Below, in pieces: positions 13,783 through 25,919 of a stretch of 52,959 nucleotides of DNA (positions are counted from its first letter, which is position 1; every line of letters starts with the position of its first letter). Location of the stretch: the NCBI GenBank assembly GCA_964572555.1, contig CAZNHG010000001.1, positions 1 through 52,959 on the forward strand, read 5' to 3'. Made by a program: the position numbers and the translations under genes. The notes below the pieces were generated by a model that ran no database searches, was not told the DNA's origin, and was given only the letters and a program-made list of their open reading frames with translations. This DNA is from an uncultured Devosiaceae bacterium (GTDB taxonomy: Bacteria; Pseudomonadota; Alphaproteobacteria; Rhizobiales; Devosiaceae).

Positions 13783-14619
13783 TCAGGCCAGGAATGTCCG
13801 GATCGGGTCGATCTGGTCGGCGACGTTGAGCGCCGGGGCGTGGCCGACCCCGGGGACTTCGAGAACCCGCGCCCTCGGGCCGCGGCGGCTCATTTCACTG
13901 GCGATACTGGCGCTAAGCAGGTCACTGTCGGCACCGCGCACGAGCAGAGTTGGCGCGGTGATGGAGTCGTAGCTGGTCCATTGGTCCAACAGCCCGTCTG
14001 CTGCCTCGAATTGACGGACGATCTTCGGATCGTAGTGAACCGTGACGGCACCGTCGTCGGTGCGGCGTGCCGAGGTGTCGGCCATTCTGCGCCATTCGGT
14101 TTCCGTGAGCGGGCCGAAGGGGGCATAAACCGTGCGCAGCCAGGTTTCGAGTTCGGCAATGGTACCAAAGCGCGGCGGATTGCCGACATAGGTCGCGATG
14201 CGCTCGATGGCGGCGTCGGGGAGTTCGGGGCCGATGTCGTTGACGACGAGGTGGCTGATGCGGTCGCGCATCGGGCCGCCTGCGAGATGCATGCCAATGG
14301 CGCCGCCCATGGATGTGCCGATCCAGCGGTACTGTTCGGCGCCGATTTCATCGAGCATCTGCACGGCCATCCTGCCGAAGACATCCATCCGGTATTCGGC
14401 AGCCGCGTCGCCGGCCCACTGGCTGAGGCCGCGGCCCAGCGTGTCGGGGGCGAGGATATGGTAGTCGTCCTGCAGGGCCGCCGCGATGGTGTCGAAGTCG
14501 CGGCCGGTGCGGGCAAGGCCGTGCCACATGACGAGGACCGGCTTGCCCGGTTCGCCCCACTGGGTGACGTGGATTTCCCGGTCGCAGAGAGTGAAGTAGG
14601 TCGAGCGTGGTCCGGTCAT
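13783..14619 (-). CDS. alpha/beta-fold hydrolase, cytoplasmic
   Basis: 278 aa. HG oxyanion motif VLVMWHGLARTGRDF. Nucleophile elbow GTSMGG. No signal peptide. Its ATG overlaps the stop of the upstream permease (ATGA), so the two are translationally coupled. Confidence 0.85.
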   Translation of the reverse strand: MTGPRSTYFTLCDREIHVTQWGEPGKPVLVMWHGLARTGRDFDTIAAALQDDYHILAPDTLGRGLSQWAGDAAAEYRMDVFGRMAVQMLDEIGAEQYRWIGTSMGGAIGMHLAGGPMRDRISHLVVNDIGPELPDAAIERIATYVGNPPRFGTIAELETWLRTVYAPFGPLTETEWRRMADTSARRTDDGAVTVHYDPKIVRQFEAADGLLDQWTSYDSITAPTLLVRGADSDLLSASIASEMSRRGPRARVLEVPGVGHAPALNVADQIDPIRTFLA

Positions 14620-15677
14620 TCGCGGGTCCCCCTGAACTTGCCGACGATGCCCGTCGGGAACGAATAGACACTGATGATGAACAGCAGACCGAGCCAGAAC
14701 AGCCAGCGGTCAGGATGCAGCAGGTCGGTGACGAATGGAATACCGGCGGTGCTGCTGCTGGCGACGCCCATGACCTCGCGCAGGTAGTTCTGGGCGAGCA
14801 CGAAGATCGTCGCGCCCAGGATGGCGCCCCACATGGTGCCCATGCCGCCGATAACCAGCATGACGAGGATATCGATCATCAGGTCGAGCGAGAGCATGGT
14901 GTCGGGGCCGGTATAACGCAGCCAGATGGCCATGAGCACGCCGGCCAGGGACGCGACGACCGCGGAAATGATGGTGGCGATGGTCCGGAAATAGACTGTC
15001 TTGTAGCCTAGCGCCTCGGCCCGGAAATCGTTCTCGCGAATGGCCTGAAGAACCCGGCCGAAGGGCGAGTTGACGAAGCGCAGGAGCGCGAGAAAGAGCA
15101 CGAGTGCGCCCACGAAGACCAGGTAGTAGGCCAGCAGTTTGCCATCGAGCCGCACATCGAGGATGCGGAAGTCGGCCAGCTTGAAGGCCGGGGTGAGGAT
15201 CTGCGGGACGCGGTAGGTCAGCCCGTCCTCGCCGCCGGTGATGGTGTAGAGCTGCGAAACGAGGATCGAGAAGGCGCTCGCCACGGCCAGCGTGATCATG
15301 GCGAAGAAGATCGTGCGCACGCGCAGCGAGGCGAGCGCTATGACGAAGGCGACGATGGCGGCCACGATGACGCCGGCGACGGTGCCCAGTGCGATCGGCC
15401 CCCAGCCGGGCCCGAGATTGTGCGAGGCGATGGCGACGCCATAGGCGCCGATGCCGAAGAACATGGTGTGGGCGAACGAGACGATCCCGGTGTAGCCGAG
15501 CAGCAGGTCATAGCTCGCCACGAGCGCGATGATGATGCAGATACGCGCCGCCGTATCGAGCGAGCGCGTGCCGGGGAAGAGGAACGGAGCGAGAGCCAGG
15601 CATACGACGATGGCGATGATGATCGCGGTGAGGAGCGGCTTGCCGGGGCTGTCACCGGACAGGATACGCTTGAACAT
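14616..15677 (-). CDS. branched-chain-amino-acid-type (HAAT family) ABC transporter permease, LivM-like
   Basis: 353 aa polytopic membrane protein with LivM-like blocks (GYTGIVSFAHTMFFGIGAY, GGEDGL). Confidence 0.88.
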   Translation of the reverse strand: MFKRILSGDSPGKPLLTAIIIAIVVCLALAPFLFPGTRSLDTAARICIIIALVASYDLLLGYTGIVSFAHTMFFGIGAYGVAIASHNLGPGWGPIALGTVAGVIVAAIVAFVIALASLRVRTIFFAMITLAVASAFSILVSQLYTITGGEDGLTYRVPQILTPAFKLADFRILDVRLDGKLLAYYLVFVGALVLFLALLRFVNSPFGRVLQAIRENDFRAEALGYKTVYFRTIATIISAVVASLAGVLMAIWLRYTGPDTMLSLDLMIDILVMLVIGGMGTMWGAILGATIFVLAQNYLREVMGVASSSTAGIPFVTDLLHPDRWLFWLGLLFIISVYSFPTGIVGKFRGTRE

Positions 15678-15683
15678 GGCTGG

Positions 15684-16718
15684 CTACCTCGATCCGCTGG
15701 GCCGCAGAAGGCCCTGGGGGCGCCACATGAGAACGGCCACCATCAGAATGATGCTGGAACCGACGGCAAGTTTGGGCATCAGGAAGGCAGTGTAGTTGTT
15801 GGTCAGCCCGATCAGAAGGGCGGCGAGGAAGCAGCCCTCGACCGAGCCGAGGCCGCCGATGATGATGGTGATGAATACCAGAACCATGACGCTCATGCCC
15901 ATCTGGGCGGTAATGACTTCGTCATAGAGCGCCCACATGATGCCGCCGAGGCCCGCGAGCGCGGAAGCGGCGACGAAGACGCCGATGAACAGGATCGAGA
16001 CGCGATAACCCAGCGACTCCACCATCTCGCGGTTCTCGACGCCGGCCCGCACGAGAAGACCGATGCGCGTGCGTGTGAGAATGAGGCGCAGGGCGACGAA
16101 CAGGGCCAGCCCGAGCGCGACGGCGAGCAGGCGGTATTTCTCCATGACGATGTCGCCGACGATGAAGGCGCCGCTCAGGCTCTCCGGCCGCGGAATGGGA
16201 ATCTCGTTGGGCCCCCAGATGACGATGATGAGCTGCTCGACGACGATCAGGCCGCCCATGGTGATCAGAATCTGCTTGAGATGATTGCCGTAGACGGGCC
16301 GCACGATGACGCGCTCGAAGAACAGGCCAAGCGTTCCGGCAGCCCCCATTGCCGCCACGGCCGCAATGAGCAGGGCCAGAAGATTCAACCCTATCGAGGG
16401 CGCCATGTAGATCGGCCCCAGCAGGAGAAGGACGGACACGCCCGCGAAGGCACCGAAGGAGATCATCGCGCCGTGGCCGAAATTGAGAACGTCCATCAGG
16501 CCGAACACCAGTGTCAGGCCCGAGGCCATCATGAAGATCATCAGGCCCATGGCGAGGCCGGCCAGGGTGAGCGTGGCCCAGGTCGGGACGCTGCCGATAG
16601 GCAGCAGCGCTGCGACGATGAGCGCCGGTACGGTGAAATAGGCGAGCCGTTCCGCAATGAAAGTCAGCGGGCCGCTTGCGCCGTCCGAGACGGAAACGGG
16701 TTGATCCGATGCGCTCAT
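15684..16718 (-). CDS. HAAT-family ABC transporter permease, LivH-like
   Basis: 344 aa polytopic. GLTLVFGLMDVLNFGHGAM motif typical of LivH. Confidence 0.88.
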   Translation of the reverse strand: MSASDQPVSVSDGASGPLTFIAERLAYFTVPALIVAALLPIGSVPTWATLTLAGLAMGLMIFMMASGLTLVFGLMDVLNFGHGAMISFGAFAGVSVLLLLGPIYMAPSIGLNLLALLIAAVAAMGAAGTLGLFFERVIVRPVYGNHLKQILITMGGLIVVEQLIIVIWGPNEIPIPRPESLSGAFIVGDIVMEKYRLLAVALGLALFVALRLILTRTRIGLLVRAGVENREMVESLGYRVSILFIGVFVAASALAGLGGIMWALYDEVITAQMGMSVMVLVFITIIIGGLGSVEGCFLAALLIGLTNNYTAFLMPKLAVGSSIILMVAVLMWRPQGLLRPSGSR

Positions 16719-17443
16719 GCGGCATCTCCCTTCATGTTGAGCCCGAGGAGCCGGCCCTGCAGGTCGGGGTCGCCGGCAAGATCGGCCATGCGGCCGGTGT
16801 GGGTGATCTGTCCGTCATCCATGACCGCGACGCTGTCGCCGACGCGGGCGGCGAGGGCGAAATTCTGCTCGACCATGAGGATGGTCACGCCTGTCTGCTT
16901 GAGCGCGGTGATGGCCTCGGCCAGCGAGTCGACGATGGCCGGGGCCAGCCCCTTGGTCGGTTCATCGATGAGCAGCAGGTCGGCCGGTTCGATGATGGCG
17001 CGGGAGATGGCGAGCATCTGCTTCTGGCCGCCCGAGAGCTGGCCGGCGGGCCAGCGCCAGAACTTGCGCATGGCCGGGAAGAGCTCGAAGATCCATTCGA
17101 GCCGCTCGTTGTCGAACCGGCCCGAGCGCGCGGCGAGGATCATGTTCTCCTCGAGGGTAAGGGAGCCGAAGATCGCCATGCTTTCGGGCACATAGGCGAT
17201 GCCGCGACGGGCGATCTGCGGGGTGCGCAGGCCCTCTATGGGCGCGTCGTTGTATTTGATGGTGCCGGAGCGGGCGGGCCAGAGTCCCATGATGGTGCGC
17301 ATGGTCGTGGTCTTGCCGGCGCCGTTGCGGCCCAGCAGCATGGTGAGCTCGCCTTGCGGCACGTCGAGATCGACGCCGTGCAGGATGTGATATTGCGCGA
17401 TGTGCGTATGGACCGCGGAGAGGCTGAGAAGGGGATCGGCCAT
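16715..17443 (-). CDS. HAAT-family ABC transporter ATP-binding protein, LivF-like
   Basis: Only the last 242 aa of track ORF 16715..18370. Walker A GRNGAGKTT, signature LSGGQKQML, Walker B LLLIDEP. Start ATG at 17443. Confidence 0.9.
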   Translation of the reverse strand: MADPLLSLSAVHTHIAQYHILHGVDLDVPQGELTMLLGRNGAGKTTTMRTIMGLWPARSGTIKYNDAPIEGLRTPQIARRGIAYVPESMAIFGSLTLEENMILAARSGRFDNERLEWIFELFPAMRKFWRWPAGQLSGGQKQMLAISRAIIEPADLLLIDEPTKGLAPAIVDSLAEAITALKQTGVTILMVEQNFALAARVGDSVAVMDDGQITHTGRMADLAGDPDLQGRLLGLNMKGDAA

Positions 17444-17454
17444 GATACGTCTCC

Positions 17455-18219
17455 TCACTGTCCGCCCGTGCCGAGATAGGCGTCGCGCACGATCTCGGAA
17501 TTCATGACGTCCTCCGGCGCACCGGAGGCGACCAGCGCGCCGTTGTGCAGGACCATGATCTCGTCGGCGAGGGAGCGGATCACGTCCATCTTGTGCTCGA
17601 CGAGGATGATGGTCTTGGCGGTGTCCGCCTTGATCTCCCGGATGAGCTCGAGGATGACCGGCGCCTCGTCGGCGCTCATGCCGGCGGTAGGCTCGTCGAA
17701 CATGACGATCTGGCTTTCGAGCGCGAGGAGCATGGCGACTTCGAGCTTGCGCTGATCGCCGTGCGGCAGGTTGGCGGCCCGTTCGTCGCGCCGGGCGGTC
17801 AGGCCGCAGCGCTCCAGATAGCTGTGGGCCTGACCGATCGTCTCGGTATCCGCCGCGGCGCGGGAGAACAGGTGCATGGCGCGCGGATGCCGGGCCTGGA
17901 TCGCAAGGCGTACATTCTCCAGGACGGAAAGGCGGGGGAACAGGTTGGTAAGCTGAAAGGCACGGCCGATGCCGAGGCGCGTGCGCTCGGGTACGGACAA
18001 ACCGGTGACATCGCGTCCGTTGTGGTGCACCTGGCCCGCGGAGGCGCGCAGCTGGCCGGAAATCAGGTTGAAATAGGTGGTTTTGCCCGCGCCGTTCGGC
18101 CCCACGATCGCCACCAGGGATTCGGGGCGGAACTGGTAGGACACGGCATCGACCGCGACATGGCCGCCGAAGCGGATGGTCAGATCGCGTGTCTCGAGCA
18201 CGGGTGCGGAAGCGGTCAT
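17455..18219 (-). CDS. HAAT-family ABC transporter ATP-binding protein, LivG-like
   Basis: Start taken at the internal ATG (MTASAPVLETRDLTIRFGG). Walker A GPNGAGKTT, LPHGDQRKLEVA, Walker B IVMFDEP. Confidence 0.88.
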   Translation of the reverse strand: MTASAPVLETRDLTIRFGGHVAVDAVSYQFRPESLVAIVGPNGAGKTTYFNLISGQLRASAGQVHHNGRDVTGLSVPERTRLGIGRAFQLTNLFPRLSVLENVRLAIQARHPRAMHLFSRAAADTETIGQAHSYLERCGLTARRDERAANLPHGDQRKLEVAMLLALESQIVMFDEPTAGMSADEAPVILELIREIKADTAKTIILVEHKMDVIRSLADEIMVLHNGALVASGAPEDVMNSEIVRDAYLGTGGQ

Positions 18220-18303
18220 GGTCTGGAATGCGTCCCGATAATGGTTGCGGGACCGGGGCCGGCACCCGATGATGCCGGCCACGGCCGTTTTCCGGCTGTC
18301 GGT

Positions 18304-19494
18304 CTAGTTGCGAACGGGTATGTCCATTTCGCTGGCCTCGATCACATCGACCAGGGTGGGCACGCCCCATTCGACGCCCTCCTGCACCTCGATCTCGAAG
18401 TGATACATGTCCTGCATGGCCTGATGGTCCTCGGGCCGGAAGGTCATGGTGCCCTTGGGGGTGTCGAACGACATGCCTTCCATGGCGGAGATCAGGGTTT
18501 CCGTATCCGTCTCGCCGCCAGTCTCTTCCAGCGCCTTGACCACGGCTCCCGCCGCAGAAAAGCCCCCGGCGGTGAAGAAGTCGGGCGGGCCGTCGAAACG
18601 CTCCATGTGTTGCTCGACCAGCCAGTCGTTGATCGCGTTGTCCGGGATCTCGTAGTAATAGTAGGTCGCGCCCTCCATTCCCGGCAGGTCCCTGTAGGCG
18701 ACCATGGCCGGCAGGATGTTACCCCCACTGGCGAGCTCGATGTCGAGACGGCCCGGATTCATGTCCTTGATCTTGCCCAGCGGATTGCCGCCGCCGGCCC
18801 AGATCACGAAGATGATCTTGCGGCCTTCCTCACCCTCGAGCGCATCGAACAGGCGCTGGGCATGTGCAGTGAAGTCGGTGGTGTCCGTGGGCGCATACTC
18901 CTCGAATACGAGCTCGGCACCCGTACCATCGAGGGCTTCCTTGAACGCGGCGACCCCGTCGCGGCCAAAGGCATAGTCCTGCGCGAGGGTGGCGATCTTC
19001 ACGTCCTCGCCGCCAAGCGCCACCGCATTCGAGATGGCATCCTGCGAGGAGTTGCGGCCGGTGCGGAAGATGTAGCGGTTCCAGTTCTCGCCGGTGATGC
19101 TGTCGGCCACGGCCGGCTCGACGAGGAAGACCTTGCCGTATTCCTGGGCCACCGGAAGCATGGCGAGGGTGACACCGGAGCTGACACCGCCAACAGCGAG
19201 ATCGACCTCGTCATCGCCATAGGCCTCGGCGAGAACCGAGCGCCCGATATCGGGCTCGAGCTGGGTGTCCTTCTCGATGACCTCGATCTTCTTGCCTGCG
19301 ACCTCCATGGTGCCATCGGTGAAGTATTCGAGGCCCATCATGAAGCCGTTGTGCGACTGCGTCGCATAGGCTTCGAGAGCGCCGGTCTTGCCATAGACAT
19401 GCGCGATCTTGATCGTGTCCTCCTGGGCGAGGGCGCCGGAGCCCCCAAGAAGCGTTACGCAGGCGGCAACGCCGAGTGTTTGCAGCAGTTTCAT
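18304..19494 (-). CDS. HAAT-family (Leu/Ile/Val-binding-protein fold) ABC substrate-binding protein, ligand unknown
   Basis: Start at the ATG at 19494 with a GGAGG RBS. Signal peptide MKLLQTLGVAACVTLLGGSGALA/QED. IKIAHVYGKTGALEAY...LAQDYAFGRDG pattern of type-1 periplasmic binding proteins. Confidence 0.88.
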   Translation of the reverse strand: MKLLQTLGVAACVTLLGGSGALAQEDTIKIAHVYGKTGALEAYATQSHNGFMMGLEYFTDGTMEVAGKKIEVIEKDTQLEPDIGRSVLAEAYGDDEVDLAVGGVSSGVTLAMLPVAQEYGKVFLVEPAVADSITGENWNRYIFRTGRNSSQDAISNAVALGGEDVKIATLAQDYAFGRDGVAAFKEALDGTGAELVFEEYAPTDTTDFTAHAQRLFDALEGEEGRKIIFVIWAGGGNPLGKIKDMNPGRLDIELASGGNILPAMVAYRDLPGMEGATYYYYEIPDNAINDWLVEQHMERFDGPPDFFTAGGFSAAGAVVKALEETGGETDTETLISAMEGMSFDTPKGTMTFRPEDHQAMQDMYHFEIEVQEGVEWGVPTLVDVIEASEMDIPVRN

Positions 19495-19540
19495 CGTTAT
19501 CCTCCCAACTGGGCCCGTTACGGGCGCCGGTTCCGGTTCG

Positions 19541-19560
19541 GGGCGCCACAGGTGGCGCCC
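19541..19560 (-). other. intercistronic GC hairpin (GGGCGCCAC-ag-GTGGCGCCC) between bdhA and the binding-protein gene
   Basis: Palindrome read directly, with no U tract. A second one, CCCGG-tgac-CCGGG, lies about 20 nt away. Confidence 0.4.
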
Positions 19561-19601
19561 GGCTTCTGCGACCCGGTGACCCGGGCCGGAAATTCGTTCA
19601 G

Positions 19602-20393
19602 CTACTTCGCCGTCCACCCTCCGTCGATCGAGATGGCCGTGCCCGTGATCGAGCGGGCCATGTCGGAGGTGAGATAGAGCGCGAGTTCCGCGATCTCCTC
19701 GGGCTGGACGAACTGGCGCGTGGGCTGCGGGGTCAGCATGACCTTGCGCACCACGTCCTCTTCGCTCATGCCGTGGACCCGGGCCTGATCGGCCACCTGG
19801 GCAGCGACGAGCGGCGTCCAGACGTAGCCGGGACATATGGCGTTGACGGTGATGCCCTGTTCAGCGACTTCGAGCGCGACGGTCTTGGTGAGCCCGACGA
19901 CGCCGTGCTTTGTGGCGACATAGGCCGACTTGTACGGCGAGGCACGCAGGCCATGGGCCGAGGCGATATTGACGATGCGACCCCAGCCGCGCTCCTTCAT
20001 ACCGGGCAGGGCGGCGCGGGTGGCGTGGAAAGCGCTGTCGAGACTGACCGCGACGATGCGGTTCCAGTCTTCGGTTGCGAAATCATCGATGGCCGCGACC
20101 TTCTGGATGCCGGCGTTGTTGACCAGCACGTCGATACGGCCGAAGCGGTCGAGCACGGAACCGGCGAGTGCCTCGCTCTGCGCCTGATCGGAGAGATCGG
20201 CATGGAAATAGGCGACGCCGGCCTGGGCGGCGGTCCTGACCTCGCCAAGCGCTTCGGCCGCATCCGATTCGGTTTCGATGCCGTTGACCGCGACCGAGTA
20301 ACCGGCGGCGGCGAAACGCTTGGCAATGGACAGGCCGATACCGCTTGTCGAGCCGGTTACAAGCACCGTCCTGTTGTCGGTGTTCGAGACCAC
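19602..20393 (-). CDS. bdhA: 3-hydroxybutyrate dehydrogenase (SDR family)
   Basis: 263 aa with a GTG start 5 nt after a GGAGG RBS. TGSTSGIG cofactor motif, YKSAYVATKHG catalytic motif, C-terminal ISIDGGWTAK. Overall pattern typical of BdhA. Confidence 0.9.
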   Translation of the reverse strand: MVSNTDNRTVLVTGSTSGIGLSIAKRFAAAGYSVAVNGIETESDAAEALGEVRTAAQAGVAYFHADLSDQAQSEALAGSVLDRFGRIDVLVNNAGIQKVAAIDDFATEDWNRIVAVSLDSAFHATRAALPGMKERGWGRIVNIASAHGLRASPYKSAYVATKHGVVGLTKTVALEVAEQGITVNAICPGYVWTPLVAAQVADQARVHGMSEEDVVRKVMLTPQPTRQFVQPEEIAELALYLTSDMARSITGTAISIDGGWTAK

Positions 20394-20459
20394 GATTCCT
20401 CCACCCTCGGATTCAGGCCGGTTTGGGCGTCCGGCCGATCGTCGTTTTGGCCCTTCCCT

Positions 20460-20477
20460 TTCAAGGGGCGTGCCAAG
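20460..20477 (-). promoter_or_regulatory. sigma54-type -24/-12 promoter upstream of bdhA (minus strand CTTGGCACG-cccc-TTGAA)
   Basis: Reverse complement of 20460-20477. The -24 TGGCACG is perfect and the spacing is correct. The -12 reads TTGA instead of TTGC. It lies about 67 nt upstream of the bdhA GTG and directly downstream of a sigma54 EBP gene. Confidence 0.5.
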
Positions 20478-20502
20478 TTGAAACAGGCGGGGTTTGTGGT
20501 GG

Positions 20503-20542
20503 AGATATATCGAGTTTCCACAGAGAGATAGAGAATATATCT
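20503..20542. promoter_or_regulatory. AT-rich inverted repeat AGATATAT-N24-ATATATCT, candidate EBP binding site (UAS)
   Basis: Read directly. It lies 30-80 bp upstream of the putative sigma54 promoter and is conspicuously AT-rich for this genome. Confidence 0.3.
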
Positions 20543-20634
20543 AATGTTTCGGGCAAGCGTGGCACATCACGCCCATTGTCCGTGTTTCCGAACAAAACGT
20601 CCGCAAATCCGAACACTTGTGCGATGACTGGGTA

Positions 20635-22056
<1,422 letters not shown>

Positions 22057-22119
22057 GCGATTACCTTTCTCGACTGGTATTCACGGTAACCGTGCACCCG
22101 GATGCCCGCAAGCTGACGG

Positions 22120-24066
<1,947 letters not shown>

Positions 24067-24077
24067 TTTGCTCCTCC

Positions 24078-25259
24078 TCAGTCGCGGGCGATGCACATGG
24101 CGATGCCCATGCCGCCGCCAATGCAAAGCGTGGCGACACCCCGGCGGGCATCGCGTTTGATCATTTCATGGATCAGCGTGGTCAGGACACGGGCGCCGGA
24201 TGCGCCGATCGGGTGGCCCAGCGCGATGGCACCGCCGTTGACGTTGACCTTCCCGGCGTCGAGTTCAAGATCGCGCATGACCGCCAGGCTCTGAGAGGCG
24301 AAGGCCTCGTTGATCTCCCACAGATCGACGCTGTCTGTCGTCCAGCCGGCCCGTTCGAGCGCCTTGCGGCTGGCACCGATCGGGCCAAGGCCCATGACCT
24401 GCGGATCGAGCCCGACATGTGCCCAGGAGGCGATGCGGGCCAGCGGCGTGACGTTCGCGGCCGCCAAAGCCGATTCCGACATGAGAACCACGGCCGCGGC
24501 ACCGTCGTTGATGCCCGAGGCATTGCCCGCCGTGACCGTGCCGTCCTTGTCGAACGCGGGCTTGAGCTTCTGCATCGTGGCGAGGTCGGCGTCATGACGG
24601 ATGAACTCGTCGGCACTGACGATGGTCTCCCCCTTGCGGGTCTTGACTGAAACAGGGACGATTTCGGTGGCAAAGCGGCCGGCCTTCTCCGCGGCCGATG
24701 CACGCTGGTGCGAGGTGAGGGCGAAGGCGTCCTGGGCCTCCCGCTCGATCAGATACTGCTTGGCGACATTCTCCGCAGTGGCGCCCATGGGGTAGCCATA
24801 GAAGGCGTCGCTCAGCCCCTCGCTCATCACCGTGTCGGTGAAGGTGATATCACCAAGCTTCTGCCCCTGCCGAAGCGTGGCGACGTGCGGGGCACGGCTC
24901 ATGCTTTCCTGCCCACCCGCGACAACCGCTTCCGCCTCGCCGAGCGCAATCTGCTGGCCCGCGAGGGCGATGGCGCGCAAGCCGGAACCACACACCTGGT
25001 TCACGGAAAGGGCAGGGGCGCTGTCGGCGAGTCCGGCGGCACGAGCCGCCTGGCGCGCCGGGTTCATGCCCTGGCCGGCCGTAAGGACCTGCCCCAGGAT
25101 CGTTTCGTCGATACGGGCGGGCTCCAAGCCGGCGTCCGCGATCGCGGCGGTGATGGCAATGGTGCCGAGTTCATGCGCGGCGAGCGAGACGAGGCCCCCG
25201 TTCAGCGCGCCGATCGGTGTGCGGCGTGCCGCCACGATGTGAACGTTCTGCCCGGCCAT
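24078..25259 (-). CDS. acetyl-CoA C-acetyltransferase (acetoacetyl-CoA thiolase)
   Basis: The ATG at 25259 is preceded by an AAGGAG RBS that lies inside the track ORF's GTG extension. Active-site [12 protein letters not shown]-terminal [19 protein letters not shown] and LCIGGGMG. Confidence 0.92.
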
Positions 25260-25340: not shown

Positions 25341-25919
25341 ATGTCGTCAGTGCGCTCTCAGACCGACGAACCCGGCGCGGGCTTTCTGTTTCCGCTCGAA
25401 GCGCTGCCCGTTCCAATGGTCTACGCCACGCACCGGATCATTCGCGATTGCAATACGGCCTTTGCCGAACTGTTCGGCTATGAGCGAGGCGAATTGCGCA
25501 ACGAGAGTTTCAACAGGCTCTATCCCGAATTGGCCGACTTCGTGATGGTGGGCGACCTGTGGCGCTCCAATTTCGCGGGCGGGCAGGCGTATGCGGACGA
25601 GCGTATCATGCGCAAGCGCGACGGCACGCGCTTCTGGTGCCGGGCGCGGGGGCGCTCGATGCTGCGAGGCGATCCGTTTTCCGAAGCGATCTACTGCTTC
25701 GAGCCGATGACGCGGCCCGTACATCACGCGCGCACGGAACTGACGCCGCGCCAGCGCCAGATCGTGACGCTCGTCTCACAGGGCAAGACGAACGCGGAGA
25801 TCGCCGGGGAGATCGGGCTGTCTAAGCGGAGCGTCGAGACTCACCGGCTTCGATTGATGCGTGCGCTGGGGCTGCGCAACAGTGCGGAACTCGTCGCCTG
25901 GTTTTCGGCGTCCTCTTGA
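25341..25919 (+). CDS. PAS-domain LuxR-family transcriptional regulator (solo, no receiver domain)
   Basis: 192 aa. PAS-like N-terminus (VYATHRIIRDCNTAFAELFGYERGEL...RKRDGTRFW). C-terminal LuxR HTH LTPRQRQIVTLVSQGKTNAEIAGEIGLSKRSVETHRLRLM. Confidence 0.8.
   Translation: MSSVRSQTDEPGAGFLFPLEALPVPMVYATHRIIRDCNTAFAELFGYERGELRNESFNRLYPELADFVMVGDLWRSNFAGGQAYADERIMRKRDGTRFWCRARGRSMLRGDPFSEAIYCFEPMTRPVHHARTELTPRQRQIVTLVSQGKTNAEIAGEIGLSKRSVETHRLRLMRALGLRNSAELVAWFSASS

Follow-up and report, generated by a model that had tools for sequence, protein, structure and literature searches.

Polyhydroxybutyrate (PHB) is both a major carbon store of microorganisms and a commercial biodegradable plastic, and extracellular depolymerases are commonly reported to yield mainly dimers and short oligomers. 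Described here is a locus of an uncultured Devosiaceae bacterium of the order Rhizobiales (NCBI GenBank assembly GCA_964572555.1, contig CAZNHG010000001.1, positions 13783-25259), in which genes for the catabolism of 3-hydroxybutyrate (3HB) are combined with a five-gene ATP-binding cassette (ABC) importer of the HAAT family and with a cytoplasmic alpha/beta hydrolase. The window, that is the whole stretch of DNA analyzed, is the entire 52,959-bp contig of an 89%-complete assembly that is fragmented into 581 contigs. On balance, we lean toward the view that the locus serves to take up 3HB oligomers or esters from outside, derived from the breakdown of the PHB of other organisms, and to hydrolyze them within the cell. 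A survey of the literature, which was not exhaustive, revealed no description of an ABC system that imports 3HB or 3HB oligomers; cellular uptake of PHB dimers or short oligomers was not found described either, and a systems paper on PhaR of S. meliloti features no relevant transporter.

According to Schroer et al. 2023 (PMC10130141), the only confirmed bacterial system for the uptake of 3HB is encoded by hbtABC (SPO2571-2573) in Ruegeria pomeroyi. The likeness to the locus under study lies in the uptake of a PHB-derived monomer in marine Alphaproteobacteria, but by its description hbtABC comprises three genes, as opposed to the five of a HAAT ABC importer, and no esterase is described along with it (PMC10130141). 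Control of bdhA by sigma-54 and an activator, which an earlier reading of this DNA, made from the sequence only, had mentioned for Pseudomonas aeruginosa, is documented together with a permease in Pseudomonas putida, where the activator, bdhA and the 3HB permease (PP_3073-3075) are all tied to 3HB use by fitness data (bioRxiv 10.1101/2020.07.04.188060). By layout, this arrangement can be likened to that found in the window, since a sigma-54 activator resides next to bdhA and to a 3HB uptake gene. The counterpart in P. aeruginosa is the PA2003-PA2005 HbcR system. The Pseudomonas transporter is a single-component monomer permease and an esterase is absent, whereas the window carries a five-gene ABC system plus an esterase.

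The hydrolase itself has its closest described relative in Cupriavidus necator (Ralstonia eutropha) H16. PhaY2, which corresponds to H16_A1335 according to PMC3430594, is also known as PhaZc, and is cited in two papers as a 3HB-oligomer hydrolase that takes part in intracellular PHB mobilization (PMC3430594, PMC3556143). In C. necator, as in the window, a cytoplasmic hydrolase of this family is encoded beside BdhA (the two dehydrogenases are 53% identical), near a PAS-LuxR regulator and genes for the activation of acetoacetate. In order, the C. necator locus has genes for a short-chain dehydrogenase/reductase (SDR), a TRAP transporter, a thioesterase and the PAS-LuxR protein (32% identical), two divergent coenzyme A (CoA) transferase genes, and genes for a DUF411 protein, BdhA and PhaY2, the last divergent from bdhA. 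The differences are marked. PhaY2 resides outside any ABC operon, with the TRAP system nearby, whereas the hydrolase of the window is coupled to an ABC permease and is under predicted sigma-54 control; acetoacetate is activated by a CoA-transferase in C. necator, by AacS in the window; the C. necator enzyme serves the cell's own PHB, whereas no polyhydroxyalkanoate (PHA) synthase was found in the lineage of the window.

Families were called from Pfam matches and by comparing curated-model (TIGRFAM/NCBIfam) bit scores with the cut-off of each model. The genes and the predicted control elements of the locus, with the adjacent divergent regulator, are the following:

25341-25919, plus strand: PAS-LuxR (GerE) regulator; PAS sensory box and LuxR-type helix-turn-helix (HTH), divergent from the thiolase gene
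24078-25259, minus strand: thiolase (acetyl-CoA C-acetyltransferase, 393 aa); Thiolase_N and Thiolase_C, TIGR01930 468 bits versus a cut-off of 241
22120-24066, minus strand: acetoacetate-CoA ligase AacS, 648 aa; equivalog TIGR01217 801 bits versus 521, NF002937 864 versus 639
20635-22056, minus strand: sigma-54 enhancer-binding protein; PAS_4, Sigma54_activat, AAA_lid_14 and HTH_8 (Fis-type HTH), GAFTGA loop in the translation
20577-20615, minus strand: two tandem imperfect palindromes of the TGTTCG-N6-CGGAC type; candidate activator binding sites (upstream activating sequences)
20461-20476, minus strand: predicted sigma-54-type promoter, TTGGCAC-N5-TTGA; -24 TGGCAC, -12 GA instead of GC
19602-20393, minus strand: (R)-3-hydroxybutyrate dehydrogenase BdhA, 263 aa; TIGR01963 386 bits versus 307
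18304-19494, minus strand: HAAT-family periplasmic substrate-binding protein; Peripla_BP_6, signal peptide
17455-18282, minus strand: ABC ATPase 1 (LivG/UrtD-like); ABC_tran and BCA_ABC_TP_C, alternative ATG start at 18219
16715-17443, minus strand: ABC ATPase 2 (LivF/UrtE-like); ABC_tran
15684-16718, minus strand: permease 1 (LivH/UrtB-like); BPD_transp_2
14616-15677, minus strand: permease 2 (LivM/UrtC-like); BPD_transp_2
13783-14619, minus strand: cytoplasmic alpha/beta hydrolase of the PhaY2/PhaZc family, 278 aa; GTSMGG motif, signal peptide absent

The sequence-only reading had placed eleven co-oriented genes in the interval; coordinates and orientation are borne out, but the genes, all on the minus strand, are ten. 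The rest of its outline of the locus holds. A route leading from 3HB to acetoacetate, acetoacetyl-CoA and acetyl-CoA is encoded, as BdhA, AacS and the thiolase all score above curated cut-offs, and BdhA is the sole above-cut-off match to TIGR01963 in the genome. The protein in the middle of the block has the domains and the GAFTGA loop of an enhancer-binding protein, and all five proteins encoded after bdhA have Pfam matches proper to a HAAT importer. The overlap that had been noticed between the last permease gene and the start of the GxSxG hydrolase is present, and the hydrolase lacks a signal peptide. Overlaps of 4 nt (ATGA) join both the ATPase 2 and permease 1 genes and the permease 2 and hydrolase genes. 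The remaining intergenic gaps in the block range from 6 to 107 nt (11 nt between thiolase and aacS), with the exception of the 241 nt located ahead of bdhA. Scans for terminators and sigma-70 promoters inside the operon gave nothing above chance. The 107-nt spacer between bdhA and the binding-protein gene (19495-19601) is predicted to fold into three GC-rich hairpins, which lack a U tract and are not more stable than shuffled sequence (z = -1.2).

Residues 20-278 of the window hydrolase align with C. necator PhaY2 at 41% identity (269 aligned positions, E 1e-63), and the GTSMGG, SD and GHAP motifs are identical in the two proteins. The C. necator match is 293 aa long, and is named 3-hydroxybutyrate-oligomer hydrolase both at NCBI and in UniRef. 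The alpha/beta-type 3HB-oligomer hydrolase of about 30 kDa, which the earlier reading had mentioned for Ralstonia eutropha, finds a counterpart in this protein. Sequence comparison placed the hydrolase in the same family as PhaY2/PhaZc, with the triad motifs aligned. The residues of the triad, Ser103 (within GTSMGG), Asp233 and His260, are invariant across 18 homologues. The AlphaFold model (mean predicted local distance difference test score, pLDDT, 91.5) has an alpha/beta fold, and the best solved matches, found both by sequence search and by fold search with the model, are 4OSE and 3BWX. PhaZ of B. thuringiensis is a generic fold match only (template modelling score, TM, 0.75), and a look-up in the ESM Atlas returned generic hydrolase names only. 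A quick maximum-likelihood tree groups the hydrolases linked to ABC genes and the stand-alone ones of the PhaY2 type in a single family, at a great distance from an unrelated esterase. By homology, the hydrolase can be assigned to the PhaY2/PhaZc-type family of 3HB-oligomer hydrolases, and is predicted to hydrolyze 3HB oligomers. The best-matching named proteins, 68-71% identical, are from Pelagibacterium. Assignment to the Bacillus-type intracellular short-chain PHA depolymerases (NCBIfam) was rejected, the match being confined to the N-terminal third of the protein and scoring 44 bits versus a cut-off of 300.

In an even sample of 301 Burkholderiales genomes, homologues were found at E <= 1e-40 in 170, a tally that takes in one unpublished genome (G735), on which nothing else reported here depends. 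Five of the 37 loci fetched from this order carry a bdhA gene (49-52% identity) directly beside the hydrolase gene; they belong to Derxia, Limnobacter, Roseateles, Cupriavidus and Ralstonia.

The presence of such an enzyme has to be set against the distribution of PHB storage genes. Searches of this genome, which is 89% complete, gave no match to PhaC_N, PHB_depo_C, Phasin_2 or Esterase_PHB. From its family 24 genomes were sampled, many of them 99-100% complete, and PhaC_N was found in only one, versus 13 of 16 sister families of the order. The hydrolase is present in six relatives, and five of these gave no match to PhaC_N, two of the five being 99% and 100% complete. Devosiaceae as a whole seem not to store PHB. 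An oligomer hydrolase in a lineage in which no PHA synthase was found points to an imported substrate, and is hard to fit with the mobilization of own PHB.

The importer shares the five-component architecture and the Pfam families with LivJHMGF (Leu/Ile/Val) and UrtABCDE (urea), and public annotations call it a branched-chain amino acid system. Yet, the importer genes of the window lie among genes for ketone-body catabolism and not for amino-acid or urea metabolism, and all the components score far below the Liv and Urt equivalog cut-offs. The binding protein reaches 59 bits versus a cut-off of 477 on the LivJ/K-type model NF011933, and 57 versus 493 on UrtA. These scores weaken the annotated amino-acid reading. 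The binding protein is 80-85% identical to the best-matching named proteins, again from Pelagibacterium, to which the organism is thus most likely related. Its closest solved relatives are the Rhodopseudomonas proteins PDB 3N0X and 3NND (E 1e-160), on the ligands of which nothing was found in the literature. Aromatic and fatty acids are ligands of related binding proteins of the HAAT type in Rhodopseudomonas, and the main text of the thermal-shift paper reporting them mentions no hydroxybutyrate or keto-acid ligand (PMC3223731).

The five ABC genes and the hydrolase gene form a conserved six-gene cassette. Among the 80 loci in species-representative genomes that encode the closest hydrolases, all five ABC genes are adjacent in 64; nine loci are cut by a contig end, five lie on contigs too short to judge, and ABC genes are missing despite room in only two. 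The cassette has been found in both Alpha- and Betaproteobacteria. The order runs from the binding-protein gene to the hydrolase gene in Alphaproteobacteria, whereas the hydrolase gene comes first in Achromobacter and Bordetella (36 loci). A further 400 Alphaproteobacteria were sampled evenly; 21 of these genomes encode a binding-protein orthologue, and 20 of the loci were fetched. The cassette is widespread and apparently mis-annotated. The two ABC-free homologues (L021 and L076 of the survey, 58-59% identity) have no ABC genes within 10 kb. One is flanked by a LysM/adhesin-like gene and by a gene for an F420-type oxidoreductase, the other by a gene for a caprolactamase-like subunit.

The neighborhoods of the cassette are diverse. 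The sequence-only reading had looked to the conservation of the linkage between bdhA and the transporter: coupling of hydrolase and transporter is indeed widely kept, but direct linkage of bdhA to the transporter is rare. Among the loci examined, that linkage is confined to the window and, in rearranged form, to Pelagibacterium lacus, and the same holds for the full set of bdhA, aacS, thiolase and activator. Among the 20 fetched alphaproteobacterial loci, an activator resides directly upstream in six. A divergent operon encoding TetR, enoyl-CoA hydratase, acyl-CoA ligase, two MaoC proteins and a second esterase was found in three, and a further two have just TetR and the ligase. The TetR-hydratase-ligase-MaoC operon is convergent with the importer operon in Stappia, Hoeflea and Pseudoroseicyclus. 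Such an operon would fit the conversion of (R)-3-hydroxyacyl-CoA to the (S)-form via enoyl-CoA. As an example of another arrangement, six loci of Mesorhizobium, Aquibium, Zhengella and Brucellaceae feature a PAS-LuxR gene, followed by genes for an acyl-CoA ligase and a BdhA-like dehydrogenase, and by the cassette. The BdhA-like dehydrogenase scores 259 bits on TIGR01963 (cut-off 307) and 257.6 on NF009093 (cut-off 258), and this SDR keeps the residues that we take to bind the carboxylate of 3HB in BdhA of Pseudomonas fragi. Each of four differing neighbor sets fits 3-hydroxyacid catabolism by a route of its own: oxidation and then CoA activation in the window, ligase plus dehydrogenase, ligase plus (R)- and (S)-hydratase in the TetR-hydratase-ligase-MaoC set of eight loci, and CoA-transferase in C. 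necator.

The TetR-hydratase-ligase-MaoC operon is conserved alongside the importer in Stappia, Hoeflea, Rhodobacterales and others (L084:16346-20028, L085:15619-19195, L086:15694-19234, and also L099, L102 and L105, in survey numbering). The two MaoC proteins are of the small hot-dog type, and the second esterase, present in some of the loci, is BioH-like.

The control region is in part conserved as well. The element TGGCACGCCCCTTGA, at 20475-20461 on the minus strand, lies 68 nt ahead of the start of bdhA. The sequence-only reading had called a sigma-54-type promoter here, and the call stands as for the -24 box (TGGCAC) and the spacing, which are perfect, and for conservation across genomes; the -12 box reads TTGA, and thus deviates from the canonical form GG-N10-GC. 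A scan of the window alone with the sigma-54 consensus yielded 61 matches versus 54 expected, no excess over chance. The promoter call is therefore supported by the conservation of the element among relatives, and not by the motif count in the window. In an alignment of upstream regions from the window, P. lacus, P. halotolerans and the metagenome-assembled genome UBA1912, TTGGCACGC-N3-TTGA is unchanged throughout and no other block is conserved, the rest of the four regions having diverged. In the three relatives, the block stands upstream of the binding-protein gene. In Novispirillum TGGCATG-N4-TTGC, with a canonical -12 box, is found at the equivalent position. Repeats of the TGTCCG/CGGACA type are located upstream of the promoter also in P. 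lacus, P. halotolerans and UBA1912, and the tandem palindromes of the window are candidate binding sites for the activator. The PAS sensor of the activator (residues 1-150) is 35-77% identical to the sensors of activators whose genes immediately precede the cassette at ten loci in other genera. As both the promoter and the activator sensor are conserved with the cassette, the three appear to constitute an old regulatory unit, in which bdhA here sits between the promoter and the transporter genes. An RpoN DNA-binding domain is encoded on another contig (C111) of the same genome.

The PAS-LuxR protein encoded divergently from the thiolase gene is probably a second regulator, a candidate for the control of thiolase and aacS. 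A 68%-identical copy is likewise divergent from thiolase-aacS in P. lacus, and homologues (32-46% identity) are encoded beside the cassette in the Mesorhizobium-type loci and beside bdhA/PhaY2 in Cupriavidus, Ralstonia and Janthinobacterium. To our knowledge, no function has been described for this regulator.

PAS-LuxR regulators of this type (181-192 aa) recur beside ketone-body genes in both proteobacterial classes. They are encoded near bdhA and PhaY2 in Ralstonia and Cupriavidus, and Janthinobacterium and Collimonas have one close to a PhaY2-type hydrolase gene. The C. necator copy is transcribed divergently from the CoA-transferase genes.

In the model proposed, the binding protein and the HAAT importer would take up short (R)-3HB oligomers, most likely the dimer or the trimer, though small 3HB esters, and perhaps the monomer, may be taken up as well. 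The translationally coupled, cytoplasmic PhaY2/PhaZc-type esterase would release 3HB, which BdhA would oxidize to acetoacetate. AacS would then form acetoacetyl-CoA, and the thiolase would yield two molecules of acetyl-CoA. The bdhA, importer and esterase genes would be transcribed from the sigma-54 promoter, switched on by the adjacent PAS activator bound to the upstream palindromes, and thiolase-aacS would probably be controlled by the divergent PAS-LuxR protein. What the comparisons show is the identity of the genes, their layout, the homology with the named oligomer hydrolase, the conservation of cassette, promoter and activator, and the lack of matches to PHB-storage families; ligand, inducer, transport direction and the pairing of regulators with targets we infer. 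The more specific notion that the HAAT cassette is an importer dedicated to PHB-derived 3HB oligomers, acting with the PhaZc-family esterase and sensed by the PAS sigma-54 activator, and serving Devosiaceae which lack PHB of their own and live on fragments made by the depolymerases of others or set free by lysing PHB-storing cells, is put forward tentatively, with a chance that we rate as slightly short of even. The interpretation first advanced, namely import of 3HB or its oligomers followed by hydrolysis and by oxidation through BdhA, is supported by the comparisons reported above.

Several observations weigh against the uptake of 3HB oligomers. A level of 41% identity to PhaY2 leaves the substrate specificity of the hydrolase unfixed, and no function is assigned to the nearest solved structures, 4OSE and 3BWX. 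The tree is compatible with a split of ABC-linked from stand-alone hydrolases, but branch support is weak. The promoter has GA in place of the canonical GC at -12. In most genomes the cassette lacks bdhA as a neighbor. It is paired with an AraC regulator and an aldehyde dehydrogenase in Achromobacter, and in Stappia, Hoeflea and Pseudoroseicyclus the importer operon ends in an unrelated esterase, only 24-26% identical to the hydrolase of the window. Finally, as the assembly is fragmented and 89% complete, the absence of PHB genes is unproven for this genome alone.

As an alternative, the cassette may be meant for another small ester, amide or lactone, such as methyl or ethyl esters of other acids, hydroxycinnamate esters or acyl-homoserine lactones, bdhA having become a neighbor by a secondary, local rearrangement. 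The cassette moves indeed among very different neighborhoods and regulators (AraC, PAS-LuxR, sigma-54 activator, TetR), the TetR-hydratase-ligase-MaoC set would also suit other unsaturated or hydroxy acids, and the aromatic and fatty acid ligands of the Rhodopseudomonas binding proteins (PMC3223731) go in the same direction. Yet, the hydrolase family includes a named 3HB-oligomer hydrolase, bdhA or BdhA-like genes reside beside family members at separate loci in several genera and in two proteobacterial classes, and genes for aromatic acids were not seen next to any of the cassettes examined. We regard this explanation as unlikely, though worth keeping in mind. It is quite unlikely, in our judgment, that the importer takes up monomeric 3HB and/or acetoacetate, with the hydrolase in a side role such as the clearing of esters or of traces of oligomers. 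The location of bdhA, directly between the promoter and the transporter genes, would be accounted for; 3HB is an abundant marine substrate, for which a single confirmed bacterial uptake system (PMC10130141) leaves room for other importers, and a TRAP transporter is encoded in the C. necator ketone-body locus. Uptake of the monomer requires no esterase, however, and still an esterase is translationally coupled to a permease and nearly all cassettes retain one; if the gene at the 3' end is not for the PhaY2-type enzyme, it is for another esterase.

The possibility that the hydrolase mobilizes the cell's own PHB, its presence in one operon with an amino-acid importer having no further meaning, looks very remote. 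It would agree with the public annotation of the transporter, and with the role in intracellular PHB mobilization described for PhaZc of C. necator (PMC3556143). Against it stand the failure to find PHA synthase, phasin and intracellular depolymerase families in this genome, the single PHA synthase among the 24 genomes of the family, and the distance of the binding protein from the LivJ/K-type model. In addition, the ATGA coupling and the conservation of the cassette argue for one substrate shared by importer and hydrolase.

Every enzyme of the locus belongs to a known family. What would be new is the role proposed for the ABC cassette, and its occurrence in bacteria which apparently do not store PHB. 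Were the uptake of 3HB oligomers correct, a widespread and mis-annotated ABC cassette would be tied to the uptake of PHB breakdown products. The binding protein and the sigma-54 activator would represent ready-made sensors for such products, and the locus would serve as a marker for consumers of PHB fragments that themselves neither store nor depolymerize PHB.

The setting of the cassette in Achromobacter is peculiar. In A. insolitus (CP022199.1, L001:6400-16330) the cassette is located between rplN and rpsQ, inside the conserved ribosomal-protein gene cluster. Its companions are the genes for the AraC regulator and the aldehyde dehydrogenase, an Asp/Arg hydroxylase-like gene and an unknown gene, and the whole looks like an insertion of about 10 kb that splits the cluster.

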